Assembly: GCA_963823335.1 (NCBI GenBank)
Contig: CAWGLD010000001.1
Span: 1,184,001 to 1,248,000, forward strand
Direction: 5' to 3'
DNA length: 64,000 bases
Origin: an uncultured delta proteobacterium
GTDB lineage: Bacteria > Desulfobacterota > Desulfobacteria > Desulfobacterales > B30-G6
In this document: positions 1 to 39,557 of the stretch, in pieces
Layout of the letters: each line of letters starts with the position of its first letter
Position numbering within the stretch: the first letter of the stretch is position 1
Position numbers and translations under genes: made by a program
Notes under the pieces: generated by a model
What the model was told of the DNA's origin: nothing
Databases searched by the model: none
What the model saw: only the letters and a program-made list of their open reading frames with translations

Positions 1-1718
1 TTGACCTTACCCTTAAAAGGCTTAACGATCTTTTATATGAACAGAAATTTGGTCCAAGCAGTGAGGTCGTGATGTTCGGCAGGGATGGCAGTATTATCGC
101 GTCATCTGACCTCCGGGCGCCAGATGAAAAGAGCGATGCCTTTCTTGTCCAGGCCCTTGAAAAAGGTCAAACAGACCATCTCCTTCGCTATAAAGAGCAT
201 GGTGAGGATCTGTTTGCCATGGTCACGACCCTTTCGACTGAAATAAGTACCGATACCCACCTTGGCATCAGCATCGATGCGGATGTCATGCTCAAGCCTT
301 ACCACGAAAAAATTGTTTATTCCTTGGTCATTGCCGCCATATTCCTGTTTTTGGCAATGCCACTGATCTTCTATACAACCTCGCGTATCGTCAGACCAAT
401 CAAGGAGCTCATGTTCCAAAATGATAAAATCAAAGCACGCCATTTTGATGAAGTTACACCGATCAAGACCCGTATCTCAGAACTGATTGATCTTTCCGCT
501 TCGCTGGTTTCCATGACCAAGAGCATCCAGGCCTACCAAAAGGCGCAAGCGGAACTGATGGATTCCTTTATCAAGCTTATCGCTGATGCCATCGATGCCA
601 AGTCACCTTATACAGGTGGGCACTGTCAACGGGTCCCGGAAGTCGCTATGCTGCTGGCGAAAGCCGCCCATGCTGTAAATGACGGCCCTTTTAAGGCTTT
701 CCGTTTTGACAATGATGAGGCCTGGAGAGAGTTTGAGACCGGCGCCTGGCTGCATGACTGCGGTAAAGTGACGACGCCCGAGTACGTCGTCGACAAGGCA
801 ACCAAACTCGAAACCATCCACAACCGGATTCATGGAATCCGGACCCGTTTTGAAGTGATCTGGCGCGATATCGAGATAGAGGCATATGAGCGGCGTCTTC
901 AGGGTGAAGATGAAATACAGATCAGCACCTGGAAACAAGAAACGCAGCAGGCCCTTGTGGATGATTTTGCTTTTATTGCCGAGTGCAATATCGGCGGAGA
1001 GTTTATGAGTCAGGAGAAACAGGAACGTATCAAAAGTATTGCAGGCCGAACCTGGATACGCCACTTTGATGATCGACTCGGCCTTTCAGACGCTGACATG
1101 CTGCAGTATGAGGGAATTGAAGTGATTCCAGTTCCGGCTGTCGAGCAACTTATGAGCGACAAGCCCGAGCACCTTGTTAAACGACCCAACTTTGACGGGG
1201 AAGCCTACCGCAAACAGGGCTTCAAGCTGGAAGTTCCTGAATTCCTATATAACCATGGTGAAATCTATAACCTCTGTATTGAAAAAGGGACCCTCACGCC
1301 TGAAGAGCGTTTCAAGATCAACGAACATGTCATCATGAGCATCAAAATGTTAGAGCGACTGCCCTATCCTGAAAATATGGAACAGATACCGGAGTATGCC
1401 GGTACCCACCATGAAACCATGATCGGCACAGGATATCCGCGACGGCTTCACAAGGAGGATCTTTCGATACCTGCACGTATCATGGTCATTGCCGATATTT
1501 TTGAAGCTCTGACCGCTTCAGACCGACCATATAAAAAGGGTAAAACACTTTCCCAAGCAATCAAGATAATGCATTTTATGAAAAAAGACGAGCATATCGA
1601 TGCAGAGCTCTTTGACCTATTTTTAACTTCGGGGGTCCATCTCGAGTATGCAAAACGCTATCTGAAACCCGAGCAGGTTGATGAAGTGAAGATAGAAGCG
1701 GAGCCTTCAAACCCGTGA
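1..1718 (+). CDS. HAMP + HD-GYP domain phosphohydrolase (c-di-GMP phosphodiesterase-like), 5'-truncated by window edge
   Basis: TM helix, HAMP-like RIVRPIKEL, DAKSPYTGGHC, WLHDCGK and HHETMIGTGYP motifs; frame is open back to base 3. Confidence 0.9.
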   Translation, partial: DLTLKRLNDLLYEQKFGPSSEVVMFGRDGSIIASSDLRAPDEKSDAFLVQALEKGQTDHLLRYKEHGEDLFAMVTTLSTEISTDTHLGISIDADVMLKPYHEKIVYSLVIAAIFLFLAMPLIFYTTSRIVRPIKELMFQNDKIKARHFDEVTPIKTRISELIDLSASLVSMTKSIQAYQKAQAELMDSFIKLIADAIDAKSPYTGGHCQRVPEVAMLLAKAAHAVNDGPFKAFRFDNDEAWREFETGAWLHDCGKVTTPEYVVDKATKLETIHNRIHGIRTRFEVIWRDIEIEAYERRLQGEDEIQISTWKQETQQALVDDFAFIAECNIGGEFMSQEKQERIKSIAGRTWIRHFDDRLGLSDADMLQYEGIEVIPVPAVEQLMSDKPEHLVKRPNFDGEAYRKQGFKLEVPEFLYNHGEIYNLCIEKGTLTPEERFKINEHVIMSIKMLERLPYPENMEQIPEYAGTHHETMIGTGYPRRLHKEDLSIPARIMVIADIFEALTASDRPYKKGKTLSQAIKIMHFMKKDEHIDAELFDLFLTSGVHLEYAKRYLKPEQVDEVKIEAEPSNP

Positions 1719-26910: not shown

Positions 26911-29900
26911 TTAATCTTCTTTCGGTTTAAAGGCCAACTTCATGATAAACGTCGTACCCTGGTTTAAATTGGAAATAACGTCGATACTTCCATGGTGCTC
27001 TTCAATCAGCTTGCGGGTTACGAGCAACCCCAGTCCGGTACCCTTGGCGCCTTTTGTGCTGAAAAAAGAAGAAAAAAGTTTTGTCTTGACACTGTCGGAC
27101 ATTCCGGAACCGTTGTCCGAGACTTCAAAGCGGATAATTGTTTCCCTTTCGAGAGCGGTCAGGACGCGGACTTCATGTTTTTTATCGACATTGTCGTCGA
27201 AGGTACACGCATCAATGGCGTTGGACACCAGATTTAGCAAGCACTGGTGGACCGTGTTCGGATCCATCCTGACTTCGCCGATGGCGGTCGAGAAATCTTT
27301 GACGATGTGAACACCATGGGTGCTTGCCATTTCCGTTACGAGCTCACAGACGTCATCGGCAATATCGTTAGGGAAGCAATTCTGGTATTCGGGCTCTCTT
27401 TCTTTTGAATAGGACAGAAGATCCATGACAAGATCGGATGTTTGATCGATGTTGCGCTTGATCATCTGCCAGCCATTAATTAGCTTGTCGGTGTTGTTTT
27501 TGTCAATGCCGAGATCTACCAGATAGCGGCCACCTTTAAAACCGGCAAGGATATTTTTTATGCCATGGGCCATGCCTGCTACGGTCTGGCCTATTGCGCC
27601 AAGGCGCTCGGAGTTGATCAGCTCACGCTCGAGTTTTTTGATCTCTGTCAGGTCCTGAAAAAACGCCACACCGCCCATCATCTGATTTTTTTCAAACAGC
27701 GGCATTCCAGAATAGTTGACGGGTATCTGCCGGCCATTTTTGGATTGGATCGTCGCTTCTTTCCACAATGTGAGGGGACGCAGCTCGGGGATGTTTATTT
27801 TTTCTTCGATGGACTGAATGACCTCACCAGGGAGGATGTCTTTTGCGTTAAGGTCTTTGGGGAGCTTGGGCCGGGTGTGTCCGAAAAGCCGTTCCGCTTC
27901 GGGATTGAAAAGAACGATATTCCAGTCTGCGTCGGTTGCCACAATGGCATTGTTAGAGCAACTGATGAGCTTGGACTGAAAATGGGCTTTTCGGCGGATT
28001 TCCTCCTGTAGTATGGAATTTTCAATGGCAACACCCATCCGGTTGCCGATAAGCTCCAGTACTTGGCGGTCTTCAGTGGTGAACTGTTTGAGCTGTCTGC
28101 TACTTGCCCGGATAACACCAAATGTCTTTTTTCCCTTATCCACAAGCGGGATATAGGCCAGGGATTGAAAGCCGACTTTTTTTAGTACGACGATTTCGCT
28201 GTTTTCGCTGCTTTTGATGTCTTCGAAAAGTTTGGCTTGATTGGTTTGGGCTACCTCGAACACCATGCTCTTGTTGTCAGGAAGACCATATTTTTTACAA
28301 AGGTCGCGATACTGGCCATGGCTGTATTTGAGACAGAATCTGCCATCCTCTCCAAGGATAAAAACGCAAATGACATCAAACAAAAATATATCGATAACTT
28401 TCTGTAATGCGTTGTTGATCCTTCCATCCAAATCCAGAGGTGCACTTAGTGTTGAATAGATGGCGCAGAGCGTTGCCAGTTCTCTGTTGCGTCTTTCCCG
28501 TTCTTCCTCGGCCCGTTTTTCATCGGTTCGATCCCAGATGGTTTCGATGGCACCGATCACGGTACCATCCGGATCTGTTATGGGGGCAGCGGTGAAAAGA
28601 ATCCATTTTTTCTCTTCTTCCGAACGGCCAAAATATTCTTCAGCTTCATATGCGCCGTCTATCAACTCCGATTTTTTCCACTGTGTGCCATAATAGCGCC
28701 AGAATTCTTCTTCACCGGCCTTGTCTAAAATAAGATCAGCCATGGTAGGTCTTTTTTCATCCCATGAAGGTTTCCAGTGCTGGTCTGTGCCGATGATTTG
28801 ATCCGCGGCATAGCCAGTCAGTTTTTCACAGGCTTTATTCCAGTGTGTCACGATATGATTTTTGTCTATCACAAAGGTGGGTATGGTGCTCCCCTGGATG
28901 ATCTGAGTCATGGTTTTTTCGCTGGCTTTGAGTGCTTTTGCCTTTTGGGCCAGTTCAACGTTCTGCTTTTCACGTTCTGTCTGAGCCTTTTTCTCTGCGG
29001 TTTTGTCCCAGATGGTTTCGATGGCGCCGATAATTTTGCCTTCCGGCGATCGGATGGGAGCAGCCGTGAAAAAGCACCATTTGCCCCCAGTTCCCAAATT
29101 GGGAAAAAAGACTTCAGCCTCATAAGCCTCATTCAGAAGGGCGGATTTGTGCCATTTTGTCCCATAAAGGCGTTTGATTTCCAGTTCACTGGTCTGATCT
29201 AATATGACGTCAGCCATGGACGGGCGCTTTTGATCGTAAAAGGATTTCCATTGATCCTTGGTGCCCACCATTTCCCGGGAGGGCAGTCCTGTGAGATTTT
29301 CCAGAGCCCTGTTCCAGTGCGTGATAACATGATTGATGTCGATGACAAACGTGGGGATGGTGCTGCCCTGGATGATTTGGGACATGATCTGCTGGCTTGC
29401 GGTTATGGCCCGGGTTTTTTCTGTCAGGGCGATATTGTGCTGCTTCCGCTCTTCATGGGACAATTTTTCTTCTGTTTTGTCCTGGAGTGTCTCGATGGCG
29501 CCGATGGTGATGCCTTGGGCGTTTTTTATGGGTGCAGCCGTAAAAAAAAGCCACTTGCCGTTGTCGCCGAGATGGTCGAAATACTCTTCGGCTTCATACG
29601 CCCCATTGATGAGATCCGATTTCTTCCACTTTGTCCCATAGTAGCGCCAGACCTCTTCCTCCTTTACACCGTCCAAGATCAGATCGGCCATGATGGGCCG
29701 TTCTTTTGATCTGAAAGGTTTCCAGTGGTTGCGGGTACCAACGATCTGTTTGGCGGAATAACCTGTCAGTTTCTCACAGGCCCTGTTCCAGTGGGTAACG
29801 ACATGATTTTTATTGATAAGGAATGTGGCGATGGTGCTGCCCTGAATAGCTTGAAATAAGGCTTTTTCACCGGTCACCATCTCTTTTCGGTTTGTCTGTG

Positions 29901-30372
29901 CGTAGACGTCCTGTTCTGTGGTCAGGTGTATGATGGATTGATAAAACTCCTCAAAGAGAGCCTCAATCTTCGCACCATCGTTTCGAGTTTCGCGGAGTCT
30001 TTTCAACAGCTCAGTTTTTTTTGTCTTTATTGACAATTGCTGCAGAATAAAACGTGCCTCGAAAAAATCGACAAACGCAACCCCGGGAGGTTTGTTTAAT
30101 AGGATATCTTCCCCCAGGTTGATGTCCTTGGTCAGTTCGATAATTAGATCCAGGTTTTCAAGAGTGAAAAGCTCTTTATAATCTGTGGTGGTAAAAATTC
30201 CCATTTCTCGAGCATAGACCAGACCGGCAGCTTCCAGGTTCAGATCGGCCACCCCGAGGACATTGGGCTTTCCGGCATCGAAAGCCTCGCTGAAAATGGA
30301 TTTGAGAAGTGCCAGGCAGAATCGGCCGCCTCCGACGATGACAATATTCGCTTTTTCTAATCGTTCTATCAT
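26911..30372 (-). CDS. soluble multi-PAS/GAF histidine kinase with an N-terminal Rossmann-like domain
   Basis: IVIVGGG N-terminus, three repeated PAS/PAC units, GAF, PAS, AHGIKN H-box, NLVSNAIDA, DNGSG, GTGLGL. Confidence 0.92.
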   Translation of the reverse strand: MIERLEKANIVIVGGGRFCLALLKSIFSEAFDAGKPNVLGVADLNLEAAGLVYAREMGIFTTTDYKELFTLENLDLIIELTKDINLGEDILLNKPPGVAFVDFFEARFILQQLSIKTKKTELLKRLRETRNDGAKIEALFEEFYQSIIHLTTEQDVYAQTNRKEMVTGEKALFQAIQGSTIATFLINKNHVVTHWNRACEKLTGYSAKQIVGTRNHWKPFRSKERPIMADLILDGVKEEEVWRYYGTKWKKSDLINGAYEAEEYFDHLGDNGKWLFFTAAPIKNAQGITIGAIETLQDKTEEKLSHEERKQHNIALTEKTRAITASQQIMSQIIQGSTIPTFVIDINHVITHWNRALENLTGLPSREMVGTKDQWKSFYDQKRPSMADVILDQTSELEIKRLYGTKWHKSALLNEAYEAEVFFPNLGTGGKWCFFTAAPIRSPEGKIIGAIETIWDKTAEKKAQTEREKQNVELAQKAKALKASEKTMTQIIQGSTIPTFVIDKNHIVTHWNKACEKLTGYAADQIIGTDQHWKPSWDEKRPTMADLILDKAGEEEFWRYYGTQWKKSELIDGAYEAEEYFGRSEEEKKWILFTAAPITDPDGTVIGAIETIWDRTDEKRAEEERERRNRELATLCAIYSTLSAPLDLDGRINNALQKVIDIFLFDVICVFILGEDGRFCLKYSHGQYRDLCKKYGLPDNKSMVFEVAQTNQAKLFEDIKSSENSEIVVLKKVGFQSLAYIPLVDKGKKTFGVIRASSRQLKQFTTEDRQVLELIGNRMGVAIENSILQEEIRRKAHFQSKLISCSNNAIVATDADWNIVLFNPEAERLFGHTRPKLPKDLNAKDILPGEVIQSIEEKINIPELRPLTLWKEATIQSKNGRQIPVNYSGMPLFEKNQMMGGVAFFQDLTEIKKLERELINSERLGAIGQTVAGMAHGIKNILAGFKGGRYLVDLGIDKNNTDKLINGWQMIKRNIDQTSDLVMDLLSYSKEREPEYQNCFPNDIADDVCELVTEMASTHGVHIVKDFSTAIGEVRMDPNTVHQCLLNLVSNAIDACTFDDNVDKKHEVRVLTALERETIIRFEVSDNGSGMSDSVKTKLFSSFFSTKGAKGTGLGLLVTRKLIEEHHGSIDVISNLNQGTTFIMKLAFKPKED

Positions 30373-30391: not shown

Positions 30392-31279
30392 TTATGGAAT
30401 CAGTAGAACCGGGAGTTCAGACAGTTCTGCTATTTGATGAGAAACGCCTCCCAGCCAGTATTCCTGGAACCAGTCTTTTCCTGTTCTTCCCATCACAATC
30501 ATGGAGGCTTTATGGTCTCTTGAAAGCCTTACAAGCTCCGGAACGGTTTTTCCGGCTGACAGGTGATACTCAGCCTGCATACCGGATTGTGCGATCTTCC
30601 GACAGTAGTTTTGGAGCCGTGATTTACTTTCCTTTTCAATCTGGTTGAGTCTGTCGTGATTCATTCCTTTGGTGAGTTTGGCATCAATGACATGCACCAC
30701 GAGAATGGTTTTTGCAAGTCCCTTTAATGCTGACATGCCTTGCCTTGCATTATCTGATGGCTGCGACCAGTCCGTGGCGAGCATCGGTCGTTCAAAAATA
30801 TGTTCGTTGGTTCGTGTTAGCTGCTCGTTTTCCCATTCAAACTGAACCATATATTTGCTCATGAGTACCGGCACCTTACTACGCCGCAGGATATCCATGA
30901 TGTGTGAACCCACGTATACCCTTTCCATCAGGGTTCTTTTTTTCCTGCCGATGACAATCAAGTCAACATCCTCTTTTTCGGCAATGGTCAGAATTTCCGC
31001 ATTCGGGGCACCGACTTCGATCCTGATATGGCTCTCAATGCCATGTTGGGCGATTGTTTCCTGCCAGTCCTCGAACCGCATGCGTGCTTCCGCTTTCAAC
31101 TGGGCTTCTGTTTCCTTGAGATAGCCCCCATATGGAACAAAGGAGACCTCGTCCCGTGGAATGATATGGGTCAGGAAAATCGATTCCAGTCCTGCTTTTT
31201 TCAATTCCAGAATGGTCTTTAGGGAATTGAGTGCCAGTTCTCTGAAATGTGTATGAAATAAAACCTTTCTAAAAATCAT
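30392..31279 (-). CDS. tandem-domain universal stress protein
   Basis: FRKVLFHTHF, DLIVIGR, LATDWS, LGGVSHQIAE..LPVLLIP. Confidence 0.88.
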   Translation of the reverse strand: MIFRKVLFHTHFRELALNSLKTILELKKAGLESIFLTHIIPRDEVSFVPYGGYLKETEAQLKAEARMRFEDWQETIAQHGIESHIRIEVGAPNAEILTIAEKEDVDLIVIGRKKRTLMERVYVGSHIMDILRRSKVPVLMSKYMVQFEWENEQLTRTNEHIFERPMLATDWSQPSDNARQGMSALKGLAKTILVVHVIDAKLTKGMNHDRLNQIEKESKSRLQNYCRKIAQSGMQAEYHLSAGKTVPELVRLSRDHKASMIVMGRTGKDWFQEYWLGGVSHQIAELSELPVLLIP

Positions 31280-31293
31280 GAATCAACTCCTTT

Positions 31294-32814
31294 TCAAAAG
31301 AAAATGAGGGAGACAATGGCAAATGTGGGAATGAGAAAAATCATGGAATATTTAAATATGTAGCCAAAGAAGCTCGGCATGGGTGTTCCAGTTTCTTCGG
31401 CAATCGAGCGGACCATGAAGTTGGGCGCATTGCCGATATAACTGCATGCGCCGAAGAAGACTGCCCCTGTTGAGATGGCTTTTAAATAAATTGCATTTTC
31501 GGTCATCAACAGGGGCACGGCCTGAGCTTCGGTGAGGCCGGAATAAAAACTTCCCAGCGCCGTGTTGAAAAAGGTAAGATAGGTGGGAGCGTTGTCCAGA
31601 AAGGCGGACAGCGCGCCGGTAACCCAGAAGTAATGATAGGGTTTTTCCACGATGCTGATCAGGAAAGCCAGATCACCATGGGTGCCAGCCTTCAGTATCA
31701 GCAGACATGGTATCATGGTAATAAATATGCCGATAAAGAGATAGGCCACTTCAATAATGGGAAACCAGGTAAACTCATTGTCCTCCCTGAGTTTAATGGG
31801 TGTCGTAACCAGGGAGGCGACACCCAGCAGAACCAGAAGGCCGTCTCGGAGCCAGTCCTGAATTGCCCTGTGAATTCCCAGGATGTTGATTTCCCCCAGA
31901 TCGACCATGCCGCTCATCAAAACGGAACCCACCACACCGCCAAGAAACAGGAAGTTGTAGGTTCCTTCGATTTTAAGGGCTTCTTTTGCTTCTTCCTTGG
32001 GAACGGATGCAGATTCTTTGCGGTAATGGTAGGTGTCCAAAAAGAAATATATGATCAGAAGCATACCAGACACCATCAGCATGTGGGGCATGATTTTAAA
32101 TGTCCAGAAAAAAGTGACACCATGGAGGTAGCCCAGAAACAAGGGTGGGTCCCCCAGGGGTGTGAGCGACCCGCCCACATTGGCGACCAGGAAGATGAAA
32201 AAAACCACCATGAAGGTTCTGTTTTTGCGATAGTTGTTGGCTCTCAGGAACGGACGTATCAAGAGCATGGCGGCCCCTGTGGTTCCCATCCAGGACGCCA
32301 GGAGGGTACCGAGAATCAGTATGATGGTATTGACGACCGGTGTCCCCCTCAGGGAACCCCGTAATAAGATACCACCCGAAACCGTATAAAGCGACCAGAG
32401 AAGGATGATAAATGGCACATAATCAACCAGGATGATATGCAGGATTTCATAAACGGCCCCGCCCCTGAAAACCCATAAAAAGGGAATGCCCAGAACGGCC
32501 GCCCAAAAAGCGGAAATTTTGCCGAAATGATGATGCCAGAAATTTGGCAGGAGTAGGGGCAGCAGGGCGATGGAGAGCAGCATGCATGCAAAAGGGATAC
32601 AGCTCCACAGGGGCAGAATTTCTCCAAGGTTGACATGCCCGCTCCCATGTGCCGATGCCTGGGTGGAACCATGTGCTGCAGGATCATCCGTGTTTTCCGG
32701 AGCATGCCCGGTACTTGGGGTATCGGATGCGTGGGTTTCGGCAATCATCGGTACCGGCCAGAACAAGAAACACAGCAGGAATAAAAGGACAGCCATTGTT
32801 TTTGGAAAACGCAT
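31294..32814 (-). CDS. ion-transporter superfamily protein (putative Na+/H+ antiporter or carboxylate transporter)
   Basis: Many TMs; ANVGGSLTPLGDPPLFLG, SAFLDNAPTY, YIGNAPNFMV; signal peptide and His-rich linker. Confidence 0.8.
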   Translation of the reverse strand: MRFPKTMAVLLFLLCFLFWPVPMIAETHASDTPSTGHAPENTDDPAAHGSTQASAHGSGHVNLGEILPLWSCIPFACMLLSIALLPLLLPNFWHHHFGKISAFWAAVLGIPFLWVFRGGAVYEILHIILVDYVPFIILLWSLYTVSGGILLRGSLRGTPVVNTIILILGTLLASWMGTTGAAMLLIRPFLRANNYRKNRTFMVVFFIFLVANVGGSLTPLGDPPLFLGYLHGVTFFWTFKIMPHMLMVSGMLLIIYFFLDTYHYRKESASVPKEEAKEALKIEGTYNFLFLGGVVGSVLMSGMVDLGEINILGIHRAIQDWLRDGLLVLLGVASLVTTPIKLREDNEFTWFPIIEVAYLFIGIFITMIPCLLILKAGTHGDLAFLISIVEKPYHYFWVTGALSAFLDNAPTYLTFFNTALGSFYSGLTEAQAVPLLMTENAIYLKAISTGAVFFGACSYIGNAPNFMVRSIAEETGTPMPSFFGYIFKYSMIFLIPTFAIVSLIFF

Positions 32815-33108
32815 TTACAAGCACCTTTCCTTATAGTATCTTTTCATCGTTATCATTTTCATCGTCGTCATATAGATGCATAGAGTTTCGATTCTAAGGC
32901 ATACCGGCTGTGCAACAGCGCCATCATCATTCTATCGTGGCGGAGGTAAGATAGTGAAAGCACATCCTATACCAAGTTTCAATATAATTCAACGCATGAT
33001 CCATAAACCAAAAAAAATAATTATTGCATTTTCAGATGGGTATGCTATCGAAGAAAACCTGCGTTTCCAATCCCGAAGCATCTGTTTCCTTACATGCTGG
33101 GGGGTTGC

Positions 33109-33342
33109 GTGAACCTCGATTACAAAAAGCATCGTGCATGGGCGGAAAATCTTTCCATTGTCATGCAGATAGGACTGACCATGGCAGGATGTGTTGGTTT
33201 TTGTTTTTTTATCGGTCTCACTCTTGACCGGTGGCTCGGCATTCGAGGACTTTTTACGGTGATTTTTATTCTTTTGGGGATTGCAGGCGGGGCCAATGTC
33301 GTCTATCGTCAGGTTATGGAGATCATCGAGCCAAAAAAGTAA
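33109..33342 (+). CDS. AtpZ/AtpQ-like F0 accessory protein
   Basis: Two TMs, IGLTLDRWLG motif, first gene of the atp cluster. Confidence 0.8.
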   Translation: MNLDYKKHRAWAENLSIVMQIGLTMAGCVGFCFFIGLTLDRWLGIRGLFTVIFILLGIAGGANVVYRQVMEIIEPKK

Positions 33343-33361: not shown

Positions 33362-33748
33362 ATGGAAGCTATTCACCATACACAGAAAAAATTTGGATCC
33401 AGGGCCATGGTCATGGCTGTTATCGCCGGTATGATTTTTATCCTGGTGGGTCAAAAGTCGATTGCCAAAGGCTTGGTGCTCGGTTCTGTTTTCAGTGTCA
33501 TCAATTTTGTTCTGATCGGTGAAATTATGCCGATGATCATCACGGCATCCCGTAAGAGATCTGTTCTGTTCTCCTTTGCTTCGATGCTGTTTCGATTTCT
33601 GTTGTTATCGGCGCCCCTTCTTTTGTCGCTGAAAATGGAAAGCCTGAATTTTGCTGCTGCCACCGTCGGAATCTTTATGGTGCAGATCGTGATCATGGGA
33701 AGCCATCTTCTAAGGTTAATTTACCCCGAAGGGATGCAAGGGACGTAA
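33362..33748 (+). CDS. ATP synthase protein I-like
   Basis: Four TMs, GLVLGSVFSVINF, FRF; precedes subunit a. Confidence 0.8.
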   Translation: MEAIHHTQKKFGSRAMVMAVIAGMIFILVGQKSIAKGLVLGSVFSVINFVLIGEIMPMIITASRKRSVLFSFASMLFRFLLLSAPLLLSLKMESLNFAAATVGIFMVQIVIMGSHLLRLIYPEGMQGT

Positions 33749-33760
33749 CATAGGACTGTT

Positions 33761-34435
33761 ATGGGAGAACTGGGTAGAATACATCAGCTGATCATTCCGT
33801 TTTACGGACATGACATCACGTTGAATCTGGAAGTCATCCTCATGACGTGGATTGTTTTCTTTCTGTTGATCCTTGTGGGCTTTTTGTCCTCACGCAAGAG
33901 AGCCGTCTACCCCAAGGCCATGCAGGTCTTTGGAGAAATTTTTATCACCCAATTTTATCAGATCACCGAGGATGCGCTGGACAAGAAGATGGCAAAAACA
34001 TATGGTCCTATGATTTGTGCGCTTTTCATGTTTCTTGTGCTGGCAAACTGGCTCGGTATTATTCCCTATCTGGAGGAACCCACAAAGGATCTGAACACAC
34101 CCCTCAGCCTGGGTCTCATGGGGTTTGTGATTGCCCATGTGGCCGGTATTAAATCGAAGGGTTTTAAAGCATATGCCAGGGAATATTTTGAACCGATGTT
34201 TTTTATGATGCCGCTGAATGTCATTGGCGAGTTGGCCAAAATAGTTTCCATATCCTTTAGGCTTTTTGGAAACATCATGGGAGGATCGATCATTATCCTG
34301 GTGGTCTCTTACCTCACATACAGCGTACTCCTGCCGCCTCTGCTCAACGCATTTTTCGGTCTTTTTGTGGGGACGATACAGGCCTTTGTTTTTACCATGC
34401 TGACGGTTGTTTATATTTCGGTCCAGGTAAAGTAG
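33761..34435 (+). CDS. atpB: F0 subunit a
   Basis: PTKDLN, SISFRLFGN (essential Arg), IQAFVFTML. Confidence 0.95.
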   Translation: MGELGRIHQLIIPFYGHDITLNLEVILMTWIVFFLLILVGFLSSRKRAVYPKAMQVFGEIFITQFYQITEDALDKKMAKTYGPMICALFMFLVLANWLGIIPYLEEPTKDLNTPLSLGLMGFVIAHVAGIKSKGFKAYAREYFEPMFFMMPLNVIGELAKIVSISFRLFGNIMGGSIIILVVSYLTYSVLLPPLLNAFFGLFVGTIQAFVFTMLTVVYISVQVK

Positions 34436-34438
34436 AAC

Positions 34439-35413
34439 ATGATTATGGATGTCCATACAGTTGTAACCCTTTCCGCATTCACCGGTGCCGGTGTCGCCAT
34501 GGGGCTGGGTGCCATCGGTGCCGCCATCGGAGAGGGCTATACCGCCGGTGTAGCGAATACCGCCATTTCCAGGAACCCGGAGATCTCCGGTGACATTTTC
34601 AAAAATATGCTGGTGGGACAGGCGGTTGCAGAATCTGCATCTATTTTTGCTCTGGTAATTGCGGTGCTGATGCTTTTTCTGGATGTTCCGACGGACAACC
34701 TGCTGAAGGGAGCGGCCCTTTTTGGCGCAGGACTTTGTATGGGGTTTGGTGCGGTGGGTTCGGGTGTGGGTTCTGGATTTCCAGGCGGACAGGCGTGTCT
34801 GGGTATTTCGCGTCAACCGGCCGCTGCATCCCGTTTGACCACCGGTATGTTGATCGGCTCCGCAGTATGCCAGACACCCGCCATTTTTTCCATGGTTATC
34901 GCATTGATGCTGATCTTTATGGATTTCAGCCACCTGCCGCTTGCCCCGACGTGGGCAGCTATTTTAGGTGCGGGACTGAGTACCGGTCTTGCAGCGATTG
35001 GTTCCGGTTATGGCGGTGGACTGGCGGCCGGTGCCAGCTGTGAAGGAATTTCCAGACAACCTGAATCGGTGGGCAATGTAACCACCGTAATGCTGGTGGG
35101 ACAAGCCGTCGCGCAAACACCATCCATTTTCGGATTGCTGGTCAGTTTTATTCTTATCTTCAAATCGTTTCCTGAATCATACACGTTGCAGGCATCCATG
35201 GCTCTGTTATCTGCAGGTGTCTGTATGGGATTCGGTGGTATCGGACCGGGTATCGGCAACGGTATGGCTGCTGAAGGAGCGGTACGGTGGGTCGCCCGTA
35301 ATGTGGAGAATGCCGGTGAACTCATGCGGATCATGCTGGTGGGACAGGCGGTCTCACAGTCGACAGCTATCTATGCCATGGTAGTGTCGCTGGTGTTGAT
35401 ATTTGTCGTGTAG
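34439..35413 (+). CDS. fused four-hairpin F0 c subunit (324 aa)
   Basis: Four GxGxxMGxGA/R(N/Q)P-type units of about 80 aa; carboxylate position is E65, Q145, Q226, Q307. Confidence 0.9.
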   Translation: MIMDVHTVVTLSAFTGAGVAMGLGAIGAAIGEGYTAGVANTAISRNPEISGDIFKNMLVGQAVAESASIFALVIAVLMLFLDVPTDNLLKGAALFGAGLCMGFGAVGSGVGSGFPGGQACLGISRQPAAASRLTTGMLIGSAVCQTPAIFSMVIALMLIFMDFSHLPLAPTWAAILGAGLSTGLAAIGSGYGGGLAAGASCEGISRQPESVGNVTTVMLVGQAVAQTPSIFGLLVSFILIFKSFPESYTLQASMALLSAGVCMGFGGIGPGIGNGMAAEGAVRWVARNVENAGELMRIMLVGQAVSQSTAIYAMVVSLVLIFVV

Positions 35414-35504
35414 TTTTATTTATAGAATAATAGATGAAGTTTAATTAGCGGCGCAGCCGCGACACATAAAATCGTGTAACGATTTTATTAAGGAGGAACG
35501 ACAA

Positions 35505-35753
35505 ATGGCTATTGAAGGTGTTGATATTGTAAAAGCCGCGGCTTTTTTAGGCGCAGGTATCTCCATGGGTCTCGGTGCCATCGGCCCGGGCGTGGGTGAG
35601 GGAATGGTGGCTGCCAAGGCATGTGAAGCCATCGGCAAGAATCCGCGCGAGGCAGGACTGCTGACCCGGACCATGCTGGTGGGACAGGCCGTATCTGAGT
35701 CCACCGGTATCTATTCCCTGGTCATAGCGTTGCTGCTGTTGTTTGTGGTGTAG
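35505..35753 (+). CDS. atpE: F0 subunit c with Na+-binding signature
   Basis: GPGVGEG...ESTGIY; strong AAGGAGG RBS. Confidence 0.95.
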   Translation: MAIEGVDIVKAAAFLGAGISMGLGAIGPGVGEGMVAAKACEAIGKNPREAGLLTRTMLVGQAVSESTGIYSLVIALLLLFVV

Positions 35754-35760
35754 TCCACCT

Positions 35761-36216
35761 ATGCAGATTATAAGTAACATAGCGCTCATCAGCATCAACG
35801 AGACCCTGGTGATCCAGTTGATCTCTTTTTTAATCTTTCTTTTCATTATCAACCGGATCATGATTCGGCCGCTACGGGCAACCATGGCGGAAAGGGATAA
35901 CCATATTCAAATGGTCCGGGAGGACATTCTCGATTCGAAGAAGGAACTCGAGGAGATCGTGGATGAATCAAACCAGGAGGAAAAAGAGATACGGCAGGCG
36001 GCCCTCCAGATCGTGGCCGAGATGGAAGGCCTTGGGCAGCATGAAGCCCACGACATCATTGGCGTGGCAAGGAAAGAAATTGCTGTCGTGAAAAAGCAAA
36101 CACAGGCTGAAATTGAGCGCCTTCTTGCCGAGGCCATGACATCCGTACAAAAAGAGGCTGAGATCCTTTCGGTTTCCGTCATGGAAAAGATCCTGGGTAG
36201 GAAGGTGTCACCATGA
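35761..36216 (+). CDS. F0 subunit b'
   Basis: INETLVIQLISFLIFLFIINRIMIRP followed by coiled coil. Confidence 0.88.
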   Translation: MQIISNIALISINETLVIQLISFLIFLFIINRIMIRPLRATMAERDNHIQMVREDILDSKKELEEIVDESNQEEKEIRQAALQIVAEMEGLGQHEAHDIIGVARKEIAVVKKQTQAEIERLLAEAMTSVQKEAEILSVSVMEKILGRKVSP

Positions 36217-36809
36217 CACCAATGGTTTTTAAAAACTGGAAAAGCATTGCCTGGTGGATGTTTTTTATGGTTATGGTGGTGACAACCACAGAGGCCCTGG
36301 GTGCGGAAGCGGCGGTTAACTGGCGCCCGACTTATGACAGTGTGATGCGCTGGCTCAACTTTGGGATACTGATCGTGCTCTTTTTCAGGTATGCCCGCAA
36401 ACCGTTGGTAACCTTTTTAAACGGGAAATCCAGGCAGATCGAAGAAAACATCAAAAGTGTCGAAGCGGAAAAAGAGGCCATCAGGATACGTATCGATGAA
36501 CTGCAAAGGGAACGAGAAGAAGGCCGCCAACAACTGCACCAGATTCGGGACAGAGTCATTTCCCAGGGAAAGCTGAAAAAGCAGAAAATCATCGATGACG
36601 CCAAAAAAGAGAGTCATCTGTTATTGGAAAGTGCCAAACAGAAAATAGAGCATGAAATAACATCTGCACGAAAGAAGCTGCAAGCTGAAATAGTTGATCA
36701 GTCCATTGACCTGGCCATGCAAAAACTCCCCCAAATGATGACCGATCAGGATACCCAAAACAGCCTGAAAATGTATCTTGAAGGGATTCATTCCCTGACC
36801 AAATCCTGA
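36213..36809 (+). CDS. atpF: F0 subunit b
   Basis: RWLNFGILIVLFFRYARKPL followed by coiled coil. Confidence 0.88.
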   Translation: MTPMVFKNWKSIAWWMFFMVMVVTTTEALGAEAAVNWRPTYDSVMRWLNFGILIVLFFRYARKPLVTFLNGKSRQIEENIKSVEAEKEAIRIRIDELQREREEGRQQLHQIRDRVISQGKLKKQKIIDDAKKESHLLLESAKQKIEHEITSARKKLQAEIVDQSIDLAMQKLPQMMTDQDTQNSLKMYLEGIHSLTKS

Positions 36810-37109: not shown

Positions 37110-37658
37110 ATGAATAAAACTCAAGTGAAAGAGATAATGATTCCGATCTTGAACTACGTGACAGTTAAAAAAGAAAATACCCTGGTTGAGGTTTTACAGT
37201 CTTTGGAACAGGCCCGGAAGTCAGAGAACGAACATGCCCATAGAGACGCAATCGTGGTTGATGCAAACGGTGTTTTTGTAGGCAAAGTTACCATGATCGA
37301 TGTTTTTTGGGCCCTGGAGCCTAATTATTCAAAGGTTGAACAGCAACAGGAACAGGGCGTACTGACTGCCGATTTTGTCATGAAAGCCGCCAAAGATTTT
37401 AATTTATGGATTGAACCCACGCAAACCATTTGCGAGCGAGGGAGCCGCTTAACGGTTTCCGATGTAATGCATACGCCGGAAAAGATGGAATATATCGAAG
37501 AAACAGCCACCATTGATAACGCATTGCATTTATATGTTCTGGGCATCCATCAGCCACTTATCGTGAACAATAAGGACGCGAAGGTTACAGGCGTTTTACG
37601 GTTTGGTGATGTATTTGAAGTCGTCAGACAACGTTTGTTGAACTGCAGTGTTTCTTAA
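37110..37658 (+). CDS. CBS domain protein
   Basis: VKEIMIP, VGKVTMID, VSDVM, VTGVLRFGD. Confidence 0.85.
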   Translation: MNKTQVKEIMIPILNYVTVKKENTLVEVLQSLEQARKSENEHAHRDAIVVDANGVFVGKVTMIDVFWALEPNYSKVEQQQEQGVLTADFVMKAAKDFNLWIEPTQTICERGSRLTVSDVMHTPEKMEYIEETATIDNALHLYVLGIHQPLIVNNKDAKVTGVLRFGDVFEVVRQRLLNCSVS

Positions 37659-37715
37659 ATTTTCGACATGACTTCTAAAATAAAAGTTAAGGAATAACGT
37701 ATAGATATAACGCCA

Positions 37716-39557
37716 ATGAATTTTCCCCCACCACCCAATACCCATGCCATGGCCGTGCTGATCCTTACCATTGTTGCACTGGTCCTGTTTACCCGTGAAA
37801 AGATACCCCTAGAATCCTCCAGTTTCCTGGTGCTCATCGGTCTGGCCGTTGGGTTCGAAGTCTTTCCGTTCCAGGCGAACGGAGGCGTTTTACACGCCGT
37901 GGACTTTTTCCGGGGTTTCGGACACGAGGCGCTGGTTGCCGTCTGCGCTCTGATGATCGCCGGGCAGGGTATCGTCCGCACGGGGGCGCTGGAACCCGTG
38001 GGAAGGGTGCTGACGCGGTTCTGGAAGGTGAGCCCGAGCATCTCCCTGCTGCTGACTCTTATTGTTGGAGCCCTTATCAGTGCGTTTATAAACAATGTTC
38101 CCGTTGTCGTATTGTTTCTCCCTATTTTGATCAACGTTTCCCTGCGCACGGGTATGAAGGCCTCTTCCGTGTTGATGCCCATGGGATTCGCCACCCTGCT
38201 GGGGGGCACGTGCACCACCATCGGAACCTCCACAAATCTGCTGGTGGTCTCCGTGGCAGCAGAGATGGGCTTGAAACGGATGGATATGTTCGATTTCCTG
38301 GTGCCGGCAGCCATTGCCGGAAGCATCGGTATCGCTTATCTCTGGCTCGTGGCGCCTCGGATCATACCGGAGCGTGAACCAACCATGGCAGACACATCTC
38401 CCAGGGTTTTCTCTGCCCATCTTGCCATTCCTGAAGGAAGCCCGATTGAAGGAAAGACGCTGGCCCAAGCCAGAAAAAAAGTAGATGGGGCCATGAAAGT
38501 CACAAGCGTGGAGCGTGGGCTTGACAATTTCATGATACCCTTTCCAACTCTGGTGCTGAAAGCCGGCGACCATCTGATTATCCGTGACACGCCCGATCGC
38601 TTGAAGGAGTTTGAAAAGATACTGGAGGGAACGCTCTATGCAGATGACGCCATGGTCGCACCTGTTGACGATGAGCACCCGTTAAAGGATGAAGATCAGC
38701 AGATCGCGGAGGTCGTCCTCATAGAAGGCTCCCGTCTTGCGGGAAGAACTCTCAGCGGAACCCGATTCGCGGACCGGTACGGGATGATTACCCTGGCCAT
38801 ACACAGGGCCGGCATTCACCCGGAAAAGTTATACGACGAAATCGGGGATATTCGTCTGAAAGCCGGGGATATCCTCCTGGTTCAGGGACCCCGAGAACAG
38901 ATCGCCGGTCTCAAAAAAGAAAAGGATTTTCTCGTGCTGGATGCCACGGCGGATCTGCCTTTTGCCCGTAAGGCACCGTTGGCCCTGCTCATTATGCTGG
39001 GTATCATTGTTTCGGCCGCCGTAGGGTTTCTGCCCATCGCCATCAGCGCATCGCTCGGGGCGCTGTTGATGATTTTCACGGGATGCCTGGGATGGCGTGA
39101 TGCCACCAGCGCACTGAATGCGCAGGTTATCCTTATCGTGACCGCAAGTCTCGCCATCGGGGTTGCAATGCTCAAGACCGGCGGTGCTGATTACCTTGCA
39201 CAACTTTTTGTTGCTCTGGCAGGGGGCACTTCGCCGGTCCTAGTGATCAGCGGGCTGATGCTTCTGATGGGCATCCTCACCAACATCGTTTCCAACAACG
39301 CAGCAGCGGTCATCGGCACCCCCATCGCCGTTTCAATTGCCGCCCAGATGGGACAGCCGGCCGAACCGTTTGTCCTGGCCGTGCTCTTCGGAGCCAATAT
39401 GAGCTATGCCACCCCCATGGCCTACAAAACCAATCTCCTCGTCATGAACGCTGGGAACTACACCTTCAATGATTTTCTTCGAGTTGGGGTACCGCTGGTC
39501 CTGATAATGTGGGTTACGCTTTCCTGGTTGCTTCCGACCCTTTACGGTATAAAATAA
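37716..39557 (+). CDS. SLC13/DASS-type permease with TrkA-C domains
   Basis: SAFINN, GGTCTTIGTSTN, two RCK-C-like units, TNIVSNNA, TPMAYKTNLLV. Confidence 0.9.
   Translation: MNFPPPPNTHAMAVLILTIVALVLFTREKIPLESSSFLVLIGLAVGFEVFPFQANGGVLHAVDFFRGFGHEALVAVCALMIAGQGIVRTGALEPVGRVLTRFWKVSPSISLLLTLIVGALISAFINNVPVVVLFLPILINVSLRTGMKASSVLMPMGFATLLGGTCTTIGTSTNLLVVSVAAEMGLKRMDMFDFLVPAAIAGSIGIAYLWLVAPRIIPEREPTMADTSPRVFSAHLAIPEGSPIEGKTLAQARKKVDGAMKVTSVERGLDNFMIPFPTLVLKAGDHLIIRDTPDRLKEFEKILEGTLYADDAMVAPVDDEHPLKDEDQQIAEVVLIEGSRLAGRTLSGTRFADRYGMITLAIHRAGIHPEKLYDEIGDIRLKAGDILLVQGPREQIAGLKKEKDFLVLDATADLPFARKAPLALLIMLGIIVSAAVGFLPIAISASLGALLMIFTGCLGWRDATSALNAQVILIVTASLAIGVAMLKTGGADYLAQLFVALAGGTSPVLVISGLMLLMGILTNIVSNNAAAVIGTPIAVSIAAQMGQPAEPFVLAVLFGANMSYATPMAYKTNLLVMNAGNYTFNDFLRVGVPLVLIMWVTLSWLLPTLYGIK

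Follow-up and report, generated by a model that had tools for sequence, protein, structure and literature searches.

Can a rotor subunit of an F-type ATP synthase give up three of its four ion-binding carboxylates and still be a working part of the motor? The question is raised by a gene in a 64,000-nucleotide stretch of DNA from an uncultured delta proteobacterium of the order Desulfobacterales (GenBank assembly GCA_963823335.1, contig CAWGLD010000001.1, positions 1,184,001 to 1,248,000; hereafter the window). The gene encodes a fused c subunit of four hairpins, here called c4, and is followed directly by a gene for a single-hairpin c subunit, its cognate c. An earlier note, made from the letters of the window alone, had drawn attention to this pair. 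Taken as a whole, the evidence is best explained if c4 is a real rotor subunit of a Na+-coupled second Fo, in which it shares a mixed ring with the single c and the Fo in turn shares the F1 of the cell, and we consider this reading probable.

The basic observation proved sound in each of its parts. As the earlier note had it, the frame is open over 324 codons and the product consists of c-type hairpins; the Pfam profile ATP-synt_C (PF00137), from which four matches were expected, does find four stretches in the protein (E 8.8e-57, 189.7 bits against a cut-off of 24). When c4 was cut into four 81-residue units and these were aligned with the product of the next gene, the ion-binding carboxylate of the family was found in hairpin 1 only (E65), its column being filled by Q145, Q226 and Q307 in the other three, and the helix-1 ligand column read GEG, GSG, GGG and GNG in hairpins 1 to 4, exactly as had been read from the letters. 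The next gene, likewise, encodes a single-hairpin c with the full Na+ signature, including Glu32 and the motif SESTGIY. The loop of a c subunit touches gamma and epsilon, and its R-N/Q-P motif is present in hairpins 1 to 3 of c4, while hairpin 4 retains the arginine. An AlphaFold2 model of c4 (pLDDT 94.6, pTM 0.91) has eight long helices, that is, four hairpins, with the outer helices of hairpins 2 and 3 broken at a Q-T-P motif. A four-hairpin c subunit with a single carboxylate is thus confirmed.

With three of the four catalytic carboxylates gone, the gene could be a decaying tandem duplication on its way to becoming a pseudogene, and this was judged against its relatives. A scan of species-representative genomes found 212 of these, and the locus counts given here rest on the best 80 of the 212, all of which are Desulfobacterales-type records, including the cultured Desulfosarcina widdelii PP31 and two gutless-worm symbionts. 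All 80 loci have an intact frame and read E-Q-Q-Q, and the order of the surrounding genes (Z-I-a-c4-c-b'-b) is upheld in every one whose contig is long enough. Among proteins, 8000 candidates were scored and 2348 matched at E ≤ 0.001. The best 120 of these are about 324, 405 or 485 amino acids (aa) long, corresponding to four, five or six hairpins, and it is from them that the range of four to six is taken. Counted together with the query (n = 121), 116 carry Glu in hairpin 1 and Gln in every other hairpin; the five exceptions comprise two proteins with E-Q-Q-Q-Q-E, one with E-Q-Q-Q-E, one of 434 aa whose pattern is shifted, and one other row. When the order of the window was sampled evenly (151 genomes, with a fused c called at E ≤ 1e-40), the gene was present in 89 genomes, in 69 of the 113 of high quality and in 70 of 110 genera, and frames of 163 and 244 aa in the same survey hint at two- and three-hairpin forms.

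Selection on the gene is equally plain. Against its five closest loci, for which synonymous divergence is unsaturated (dS 0.48-0.74), the c4 gene of the window has a dN/dS of 0.021-0.051, and for the two closest loci the silent hairpins 2 and 3 show a dN of about 0 at a dS of 0.43-0.63, so that the ion-blind hairpins are constrained at least as much as the live one. A quick tree of individual hairpins (102 rows, 78 columns, with 47 of 99 inner branches drawn open) placed first, penultimate and middle hairpins in a cluster each, grouped last hairpins with the cognate single c, and let the extra units of the five- and six-hairpin forms fall with the middle type. An intact frame, an identical E/Q pattern in 80 loci, a dN/dS of 0.02-0.05 and a conserved motif proper to each hairpin together leave decay with next to no probability, and we regard it as excluded. 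The E-Q-Q-Q pattern is under strong purifying selection and is not a product of chance; the contention that the parallel E-to-Q changes reflect selection is therefore upheld, as is the conservation of both pattern and synteny that the earlier note had proposed to check.

If c4 is maintained, where does it work? The ion in Na+ rings of solved structure has as its ligands E/Q32 and E65 from one hairpin and V63 and S66 from its neighbour, with Tyr70 and Ser66 hydrogen-bonding Glu65 and Thr67 holding a water molecule (PMC3692424). In the fused NtpK of Enterococcus hirae, Gln110 and Glu139 belong to the second hairpin, Leu61 and Thr64 to the first (PMC2359735), which indicates that the helper ligands are supplied by the preceding hairpin. 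The Na+ motif of c4 is divided, with E32 and E65 contributed by hairpin 1 and the serine, threonine and tyrosine by hairpin 4, and this is consistent with sites built between adjacent hairpins. Throughout the 121 proteins, position 70 is F or L whenever the following hairpin is a Gln hairpin (446 of 446 cases), positions 66-67 of such preceding hairpins being mostly T-P or S-A, and the last hairpin keeps S-T..Y in every protein and every locus (Table 1). The c1 subunit of Acetobacterium woodii follows the same interface rule, its live hairpin 1 reading ETSGIF and its dead hairpin 2 QTTGIY in the alignment with 4BEM. Since Ser-Thr..Tyr is kept in the last hairpin only, hairpin 4 should abut a live, Glu-bearing hairpin, which would place c4 within a ring; from these residue patterns we infer that c4 sits in the rotor ring beside a live site.

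A likely owner of that neighbouring site is encoded next door. The single c carries every residue of the Na+-binding motif (Q/E32, E65, S/T66, S/T67, Y70), and its signature EVESTY (E32, V63, E65, S66, T67, Y70) recurs in 75 of the 76 loci that have a downstream c, the remaining one being cut off; the single c is kept at 87-98% identity. The site before its start codon is a strong ribosome-binding sequence (Table 1), while that of c4 is weak and of AGGT type only, an asymmetry that would fit production of c in excess of c4. A predicted complex of c4 with c scored 0.57, against 0.00 for the best of three controls, with at least 96% of contacts agreeing between runs and a partner pLDDT of at least 82; the mark applied to such scores is reached by 58 of 80 solved complexes and by 2 of 110 mismatched pairs, with values at or below 0.60 in only 7 of the 80 and in both mismatches. 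This lends weak support to contact between the two proteins, and the pass may reflect memory, as a like complex (4BEM) has already been solved.

The same residues would also allow a ring of the fused subunit alone, in that the S-T..Y of hairpin 4 would equally complete hairpin 1 of another c4. Three c4, or two six-hairpin forms, would then make 12 hairpins with two or three Na+ sites per turn, giving about one ion or fewer per ATP and hence an obligate ATP-driven Na+ pump, and the single c would belong to a separate ring or to another assembly state. Hairpin numbers of 4, 5 and 6 do multiply to plausible ring sizes of 10-12. Against this arrangement stand the complete and closely conserved single c that adjoins the fused gene in nearly all loci, its much stronger ribosome-binding site, and the precedent of A. 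woodii, which is a mixed ring of 9 + 1 (PMC9171764); we consider a fused-only ring improbable. The next question is which machine a mixed ring would serve.

Seven genes make up the operon to which the pair belongs, in the order atpZ-I-a-c4-c-b'-b (Table 1). Both b and b' are full length (131 of 132 and 125 of 132 PF00430 profile positions covered, respectively), and the a subunit keeps its arginine motif, SFRLFGN, with 33% identity to the other a subunit of the genome. No F1 gene follows b, with which the operon ends, and within 6-kb flanks homologues of alpha, beta, gamma, delta and epsilon were found in none of the 80 related loci. Metatranscriptome contigs from four estuary runs, mostly 95-99% identical, cover all seven genes, c4 included, which shows that near-identical sequence occurs in RNA libraries; such contigs are uninformative on transcript ends or levels. 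Contigs from three of the metatranscriptome runs diverge from the window at 35414/35418, right past the c4 stop codon, so that the c4-c spacer (35414-35504), which contains a short GC-rich inverted repeat, varies among close strains.

Table 1. The extra Fo operon of the window and the ion-site residues of its fused c subunit (window coordinates; loci are the best 80 of 212 relatives)
Feature	Position	Strand	Evidence
atpZ-like small membrane protein, first gene of the operon	33094..33342	+	PF09527 ATPase_gene1, E 4.6e-15; same place in all related loci long enough
AtpI, assembly factor family	33362..33748	+	PF03899 ATP-synt_I, E 1.8e-06, 28.8 bits against a cut-off of 25.1
Subunit a of the second Fo	33761..34435	+	PF00119, E 8.8e-50, full length
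Fused four-hairpin c subunit (c4), 324 aa	34439..35413	+	Open frame; four PF00137 stretches
c4 hairpin spans	about aa 1-81, 82-162, 163-243, 244-324		
Glu65 (GAA), sole ion-binding carboxylate of c4, partner Glu32 of helix 1	34631..34633	+	E65 and E32 in 80/80 loci
Gln145 (CAG), silent position of hairpin 2, motif CQTPAIF	34871..34873	+	Q in 80/80 loci
Gln226 (CAA), silent position of hairpin 3, motif AQTPSIF	35114..35116	+	Q in 80/80 loci
Gln307 (CAG), then Ser308, Thr309 and Tyr312 (QSTAIY), hairpin 4	35357..35374	+	Q and the S66, T67 and Y70 equivalents each in 80/80 loci; S-T..Y in 121/121 proteins
Ribosome-binding site AAGGAGG, 8 nt before the single-c start	35490..35496	+	Read from the sequence
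Single-hairpin cognate c; E32, V63, E65, S66, T67, Y70 (two-carboxylate Na+ motif)	35505..35753	+	PF00137, E 1.3e-18
Fo subunit b'	35743..36216	+	PF00430, E 1.3e-16; top NCBIfam match is the B' model PRK07353, below its cut-off
Fo subunit b, last gene of the operon	36213..36809	+	PF00430, E 6.5e-16

The remainder of the genome supplies what the operon lacks. The assembly (4.37 Mb, 11 contigs, 93.9% complete) has six PF00137 matches, of which four lie in c4, one in the cognate c and one in a further c on contig 8, and it encodes two a subunits, one alpha/beta pair, one gamma and one delta. By Pfam, contig 8 carries AtpZ-like, AtpI, a and c genes, and contig 5 carries b', b, delta, alpha, gamma, beta and epsilon. 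The operon of the window is, in other words, a complete second Fo without an F1 of its own. The ordinary c of the genome (93 aa; L013:5427-5708, minus strand, contig 8) reads GQG ... IESLCIY; it falls short of the Na+ motif only at the residue two after the Glu, so that its coupling ion is uncertain as well.

The same bookkeeping holds among relatives. Gene counts were made in 26 relatives that are at least 90% complete, the own genome among them, and in all 21 of these that have a fused gene the number of a genes minus the number of alpha/beta pairs equals the number of fused-c loci. In 19 of the 21 there are two a genes and one alpha/beta pair. Of the other two, G004 has three a genes, one alpha/beta pair and two fused-c loci, one of four hairpins and one of five, while G016 has three a genes and two alpha/beta pairs, one of which brackets an a gene in an N-ATPase-like layout. 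The two modules of G004 (92% complete, 2% contamination) lie at C184:14823-16397 and C236:2292-4100, each with its own a gene. In G016, which is less closely related (54% identity), some 12 kb separate the fused c and its a from an alpha/beta pair on the opposite strand of the same contig (C64:29133-32137 and C64:44121-47242). The five genomes without the fused gene show a difference of zero, with only a beta-like match passing the threshold in one of them (G008). In D. widdelii, likewise, the Fo-only locus is accompanied by an ordinary F1 set and by a second set whose order is beta-c-alpha.

Given an Fo-only operon and a single set of F1 genes, docking onto that F1 is most likely. It is conceivable that the module instead has no F1 partner and conducts Na+ passively or works with some other motor, or that it is a redundant Fo copy acquired horizontally. 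That the operon has no F1 genes in or near it suits such a role, and for Desulfococcus oleovorans a 2014 survey considered that the duplicated Fo might have been transferred horizontally, its a and c grouping with Thermotogae (PMC4154653). Full-length b and b', on the other hand, have no known use besides holding F1, and the fused gene is kept in more than half of the sampled genomes under strong purifying selection. A module that dispenses with F1 has, in our judgement, little chance of being correct, and a second Fo for the shared F1 is the better account.

Comparison with known systems bears out the kinship that the earlier note had proposed, namely that c4 is a more extreme relative of the hybrid-rotor subunit c1 of A. 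woodii. The best match of c4 among solved structures is c1 (4BEM chain J) both by sequence (E 1.6e-24, followed by the Na+ rings 1YCE and 3ZK1) and by fold (target TM 0.83, rmsd 1.3 Å over 164 columns, followed by NtpK and the eukaryotic V-ATPase c), and the cognate c matches 4BEM_J, 4BEM_A, 1YCE and 3ZK1 best. None of the solved chains spans more than about half of the c4 model, and query TM is at most 0.47. Like c4, the c1 (AtpE1) of A. woodii and Clostridium aceticum is a fused F-type c whose first hairpin is live and in which E-to-Q replacement comes later (motifs 'Q....ET' then 'Q....QT'; PMC7911925). It too is encoded beside a normal Na+-type c and has F70 before the dead site and Y70 before the live one (structural details of 4BEM being taken here from other papers and from PDB sequence alignments). 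The differences are those of degree and of setting: c1 has two hairpins and one silent position, whereas c4 has four (five or six in relatives) with three silent in a row; helix 1 has Gln in c1 and Glu32 in c4; and the middle hairpins of c4, unlike c1, have the Q-T-P motif, whose proline is predicted to break the helix. Moreover, the A. woodii operon, as described, carries its own F1 genes (PMC7911925), while that of c4 is Fo-only. On these grounds c4 is a variant of the hybrid F/V rotor, with three to five consecutive silent positions across its family.

Other relatives are more remote. The c11 ring of Fusobacterium nucleatum (3ZK1) shares E32 and E65, S66, T67 and Y70 with the single c, a set that in c4 is made up by hairpin 1 and the hairpin preceding it; unlike c4, F. 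nucleatum has single-hairpin subunits only, with every site live. V/A-type proteolipids such as E. hirae NtpK (2BL2) and the eukaryotic V-ATPase c likewise have fused hairpins and fewer carboxylates than hairpins, their fold matches to c4 reaching a target TM of 0.8-0.85 over two hairpins, and archaeal c subunits have been reported with 1, 2, 3 or 13 hairpins (PMC9171764). Assignment of c4 to the V/A type was nevertheless rejected: the best V-type K model scored 91.4 bits against 188, all V-type K models of NCBIfam stayed below their cut-offs, and the neighbouring genes (a, b, b', AtpI) are of F type, which places the operon outside that class. The N-ATPase is also a second, Na+-linked, F-like enzyme of marine bacteria, and the repeats of c4 do, when summed, pass the alt_F1F0_F0_C model (152.2 against 130.85). 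This assignment was rejected as well, as a, b and the single c lie below the cut-offs of TIGR03306, TIGR03321 and TIGR03322 (single c, 65.1 against 130.85; a, 126.9 against 302.1; b, 32 and 25.8 against 224.7). The N-ATPase order is beta-epsilon-Q-R-a-c-b-alpha-gamma, while the c4 cluster has neither beta-epsilon nor alpha-gamma genes, and Pfam and NCBIfam scans of the operon products named no AtpQ- or AtpR-type family. The closest parallel to the operon as such is the ectopic, duplicated ATPF0 of D. oleovorans (Koumandou and Kossida 2014, PMC4154653), an extra Fo-only set in the same group of sulfate reducers and probably the same kind of module. That account treats it as a duplication or transfer in a single species, and the parts of it available to us mention neither a multi-hairpin c nor lost carboxylates, whereas the fused gene is here found in 89 of 151 genomes.

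How, then, could such a motor run? In the scheme we propose, hairpin 1 of c4 would bind Na+ through Glu32 and Glu65, the Gln hairpins 2 to 4 would be silent, and hairpin 4 would use its Val-Ser-Thr..Tyr to complete the Na+ site of the neighbour that comes after it in the ring. By analogy with A. woodii, in which c1 assembles with c2/3, c4 and the cognate c would form a mixed ring that works against the module's own a subunit. The module would dock through its own b and b' on the single F1 of the cell (delta, alpha, gamma, beta, epsilon) as an alternative to the ordinary a/c motor. Each copy of c4 would bring three consecutive ion-blind positions into the ring and so reduce the Na+ translocated per turn and per ATP. 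On the assumption of 11 hairpins, as reported for Ilyobacter tartaricus, F. nucleatum and A. woodii, a ring of 11 single c subunits, all live, would have 11 sites and take 3.7 Na+ per ATP; one c4 with seven c would leave 8 live sites and 2.7 Na+ per ATP, and two c4 with three c would leave 5 live sites and 1.7 Na+ per ATP. A lower ratio raises both the sodium-motive force required for synthesis and the force attainable by pumping. Thermodynamically it favours pumping; it could equally give more ATP per Na+ at high sodium-motive force. The genome has three genes of the RnfD/NqrB family, and Rnf has been described as a constitutive sodium pump in this group (PMC11887813), so that a Na+ circuit ending in ATP synthesis is as plausible as ATP-driven pumping. 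Membership in the ring, the ratio of c4 to c, the sharing of F1 and the direction of work (synthesis or pumping) are all matters that we infer.

A different use of the silent hairpins is also imaginable. Rather than serving as a working rotor part, c4 could be a template for ring assembly or a parking element, whose ion-blind arc would rest on subunit a and block the leak of Na+ through an Fo free of F1. Sets of Fo genes do outnumber sets of F1 genes, so that F1-free Fo could exist and control of leakage would be useful, and conservation within the protein is highest in the silent hairpins 2 and 3. Yet a parking arc would still belong to the ring, and the live site (E32 and E65 in 80 of 80 loci) and the retained loop motifs point to turnover rather than to a static role. 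We know of no precedent for a c subunit that acts as an assembly template or parking element and think this alternative unlikely, if somewhat less so than a fused-only ring or a module without F1.

Several observations weigh against c4 as a working part of a mixed ring on a shared F1. At 93.9% completeness a second F1 in the genome is conceivable, and the tally of a genes against alpha/beta pairs counts unpaired PF00006 matches of 440-500 aa (E about 1e-86 to 1e-91) as FliI-like, an assignment of our own. The contigs from RNA libraries may include carry-over of DNA. In 3 of the 121 homologues the last hairpin has Glu though the hairpin before it reads T-P..F, a combination that the interface rule leaves unexplained; it may mark a proton-type or non-functional site. 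Helix 1 in these three proteins (P0009 and two others) carries Ile in two of them. Most seriously, a single E56Q change in the fused c10 ring of Bacillus PS3 abolished ATP synthesis (PMC8809890, citing Mitome 2004), and three consecutive dead sites would on that showing need an adapted a subunit.

The genes around the operon were considered as a clue to its function and set aside, since their recurrence across the 80 loci is too patchy. Immediately 3' of the operon lie genes for a CBS-domain protein and a CitMHS-family transporter with two TrkA_C domains (37110-39557, plus strand), and no counterpart of the CBS protein or the CitMHS/TrkA_C transporter stands beside the module in any of the 80 related loci. 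In Desulfobacteraceae, CBS proteins have been linked with Na+-dependent sulfate transporters of the DASS family (PMC11887813). On the 5' side, the gene for a CitMHS_2 transporter whose N-terminus is rich in His (31294-32814) runs divergently to the Fo operon; such a transporter recurs in 16 of 80 loci and a USP gene in 22. Beyond it are a tandem-USP gene (30392-31279) and a gene for a sensor histidine kinase of 1153 aa with three near-identical PAS-type repeats (26911-30372, minus strand), which sits upstream of both.

What is at stake is the ion/ATP ratio of ATP synthases, of which c-subunit number is generally held to be the main determinant. The A. woodii ring, with its one silent position, is the only bacterial F-type exception that we found described. 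A full-text search of the literature found no description of an F-type c with four to six hairpins and one site, supplementary tables, which may list the genes or proteins, lying outside that search (PMC11738941, PMC11887813), and it found no proposal of two Fo motors that share one F1.

Against this background, the fused-c family occurs in the majority of genera sampled from an order that is dominant in the oxidation of carbon in marine sediments. Should its proteins be parts of rings, they would test how far a rotor can pass subunit a without ions, and so bear on the result with the PS3 c10 ring; rings of fused subunits alone would give about 1 Na+ per ATP. The Fo-only layout and the single F1 raise a further question, which is whether the membrane motor may be exchangeable under one catalytic head, with a change of both ion and gear. 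D. widdelii PP31, in culture and with a complete genome, makes biochemical tests possible. For marine sulfate reducers in general we would put forward, more tentatively than the role of c4 itself and as something short of an even chance, that one F1 head is served by two interchangeable motors, one of which contains a one-site subunit of four to six hairpins, so that its ion-blind arc would be long and its Na+/ATP ratio much lower. If true, the exchange of Fo would be a natural shift of gear and ion in an ATP synthase, of a kind for which we found no description in the literature searched.

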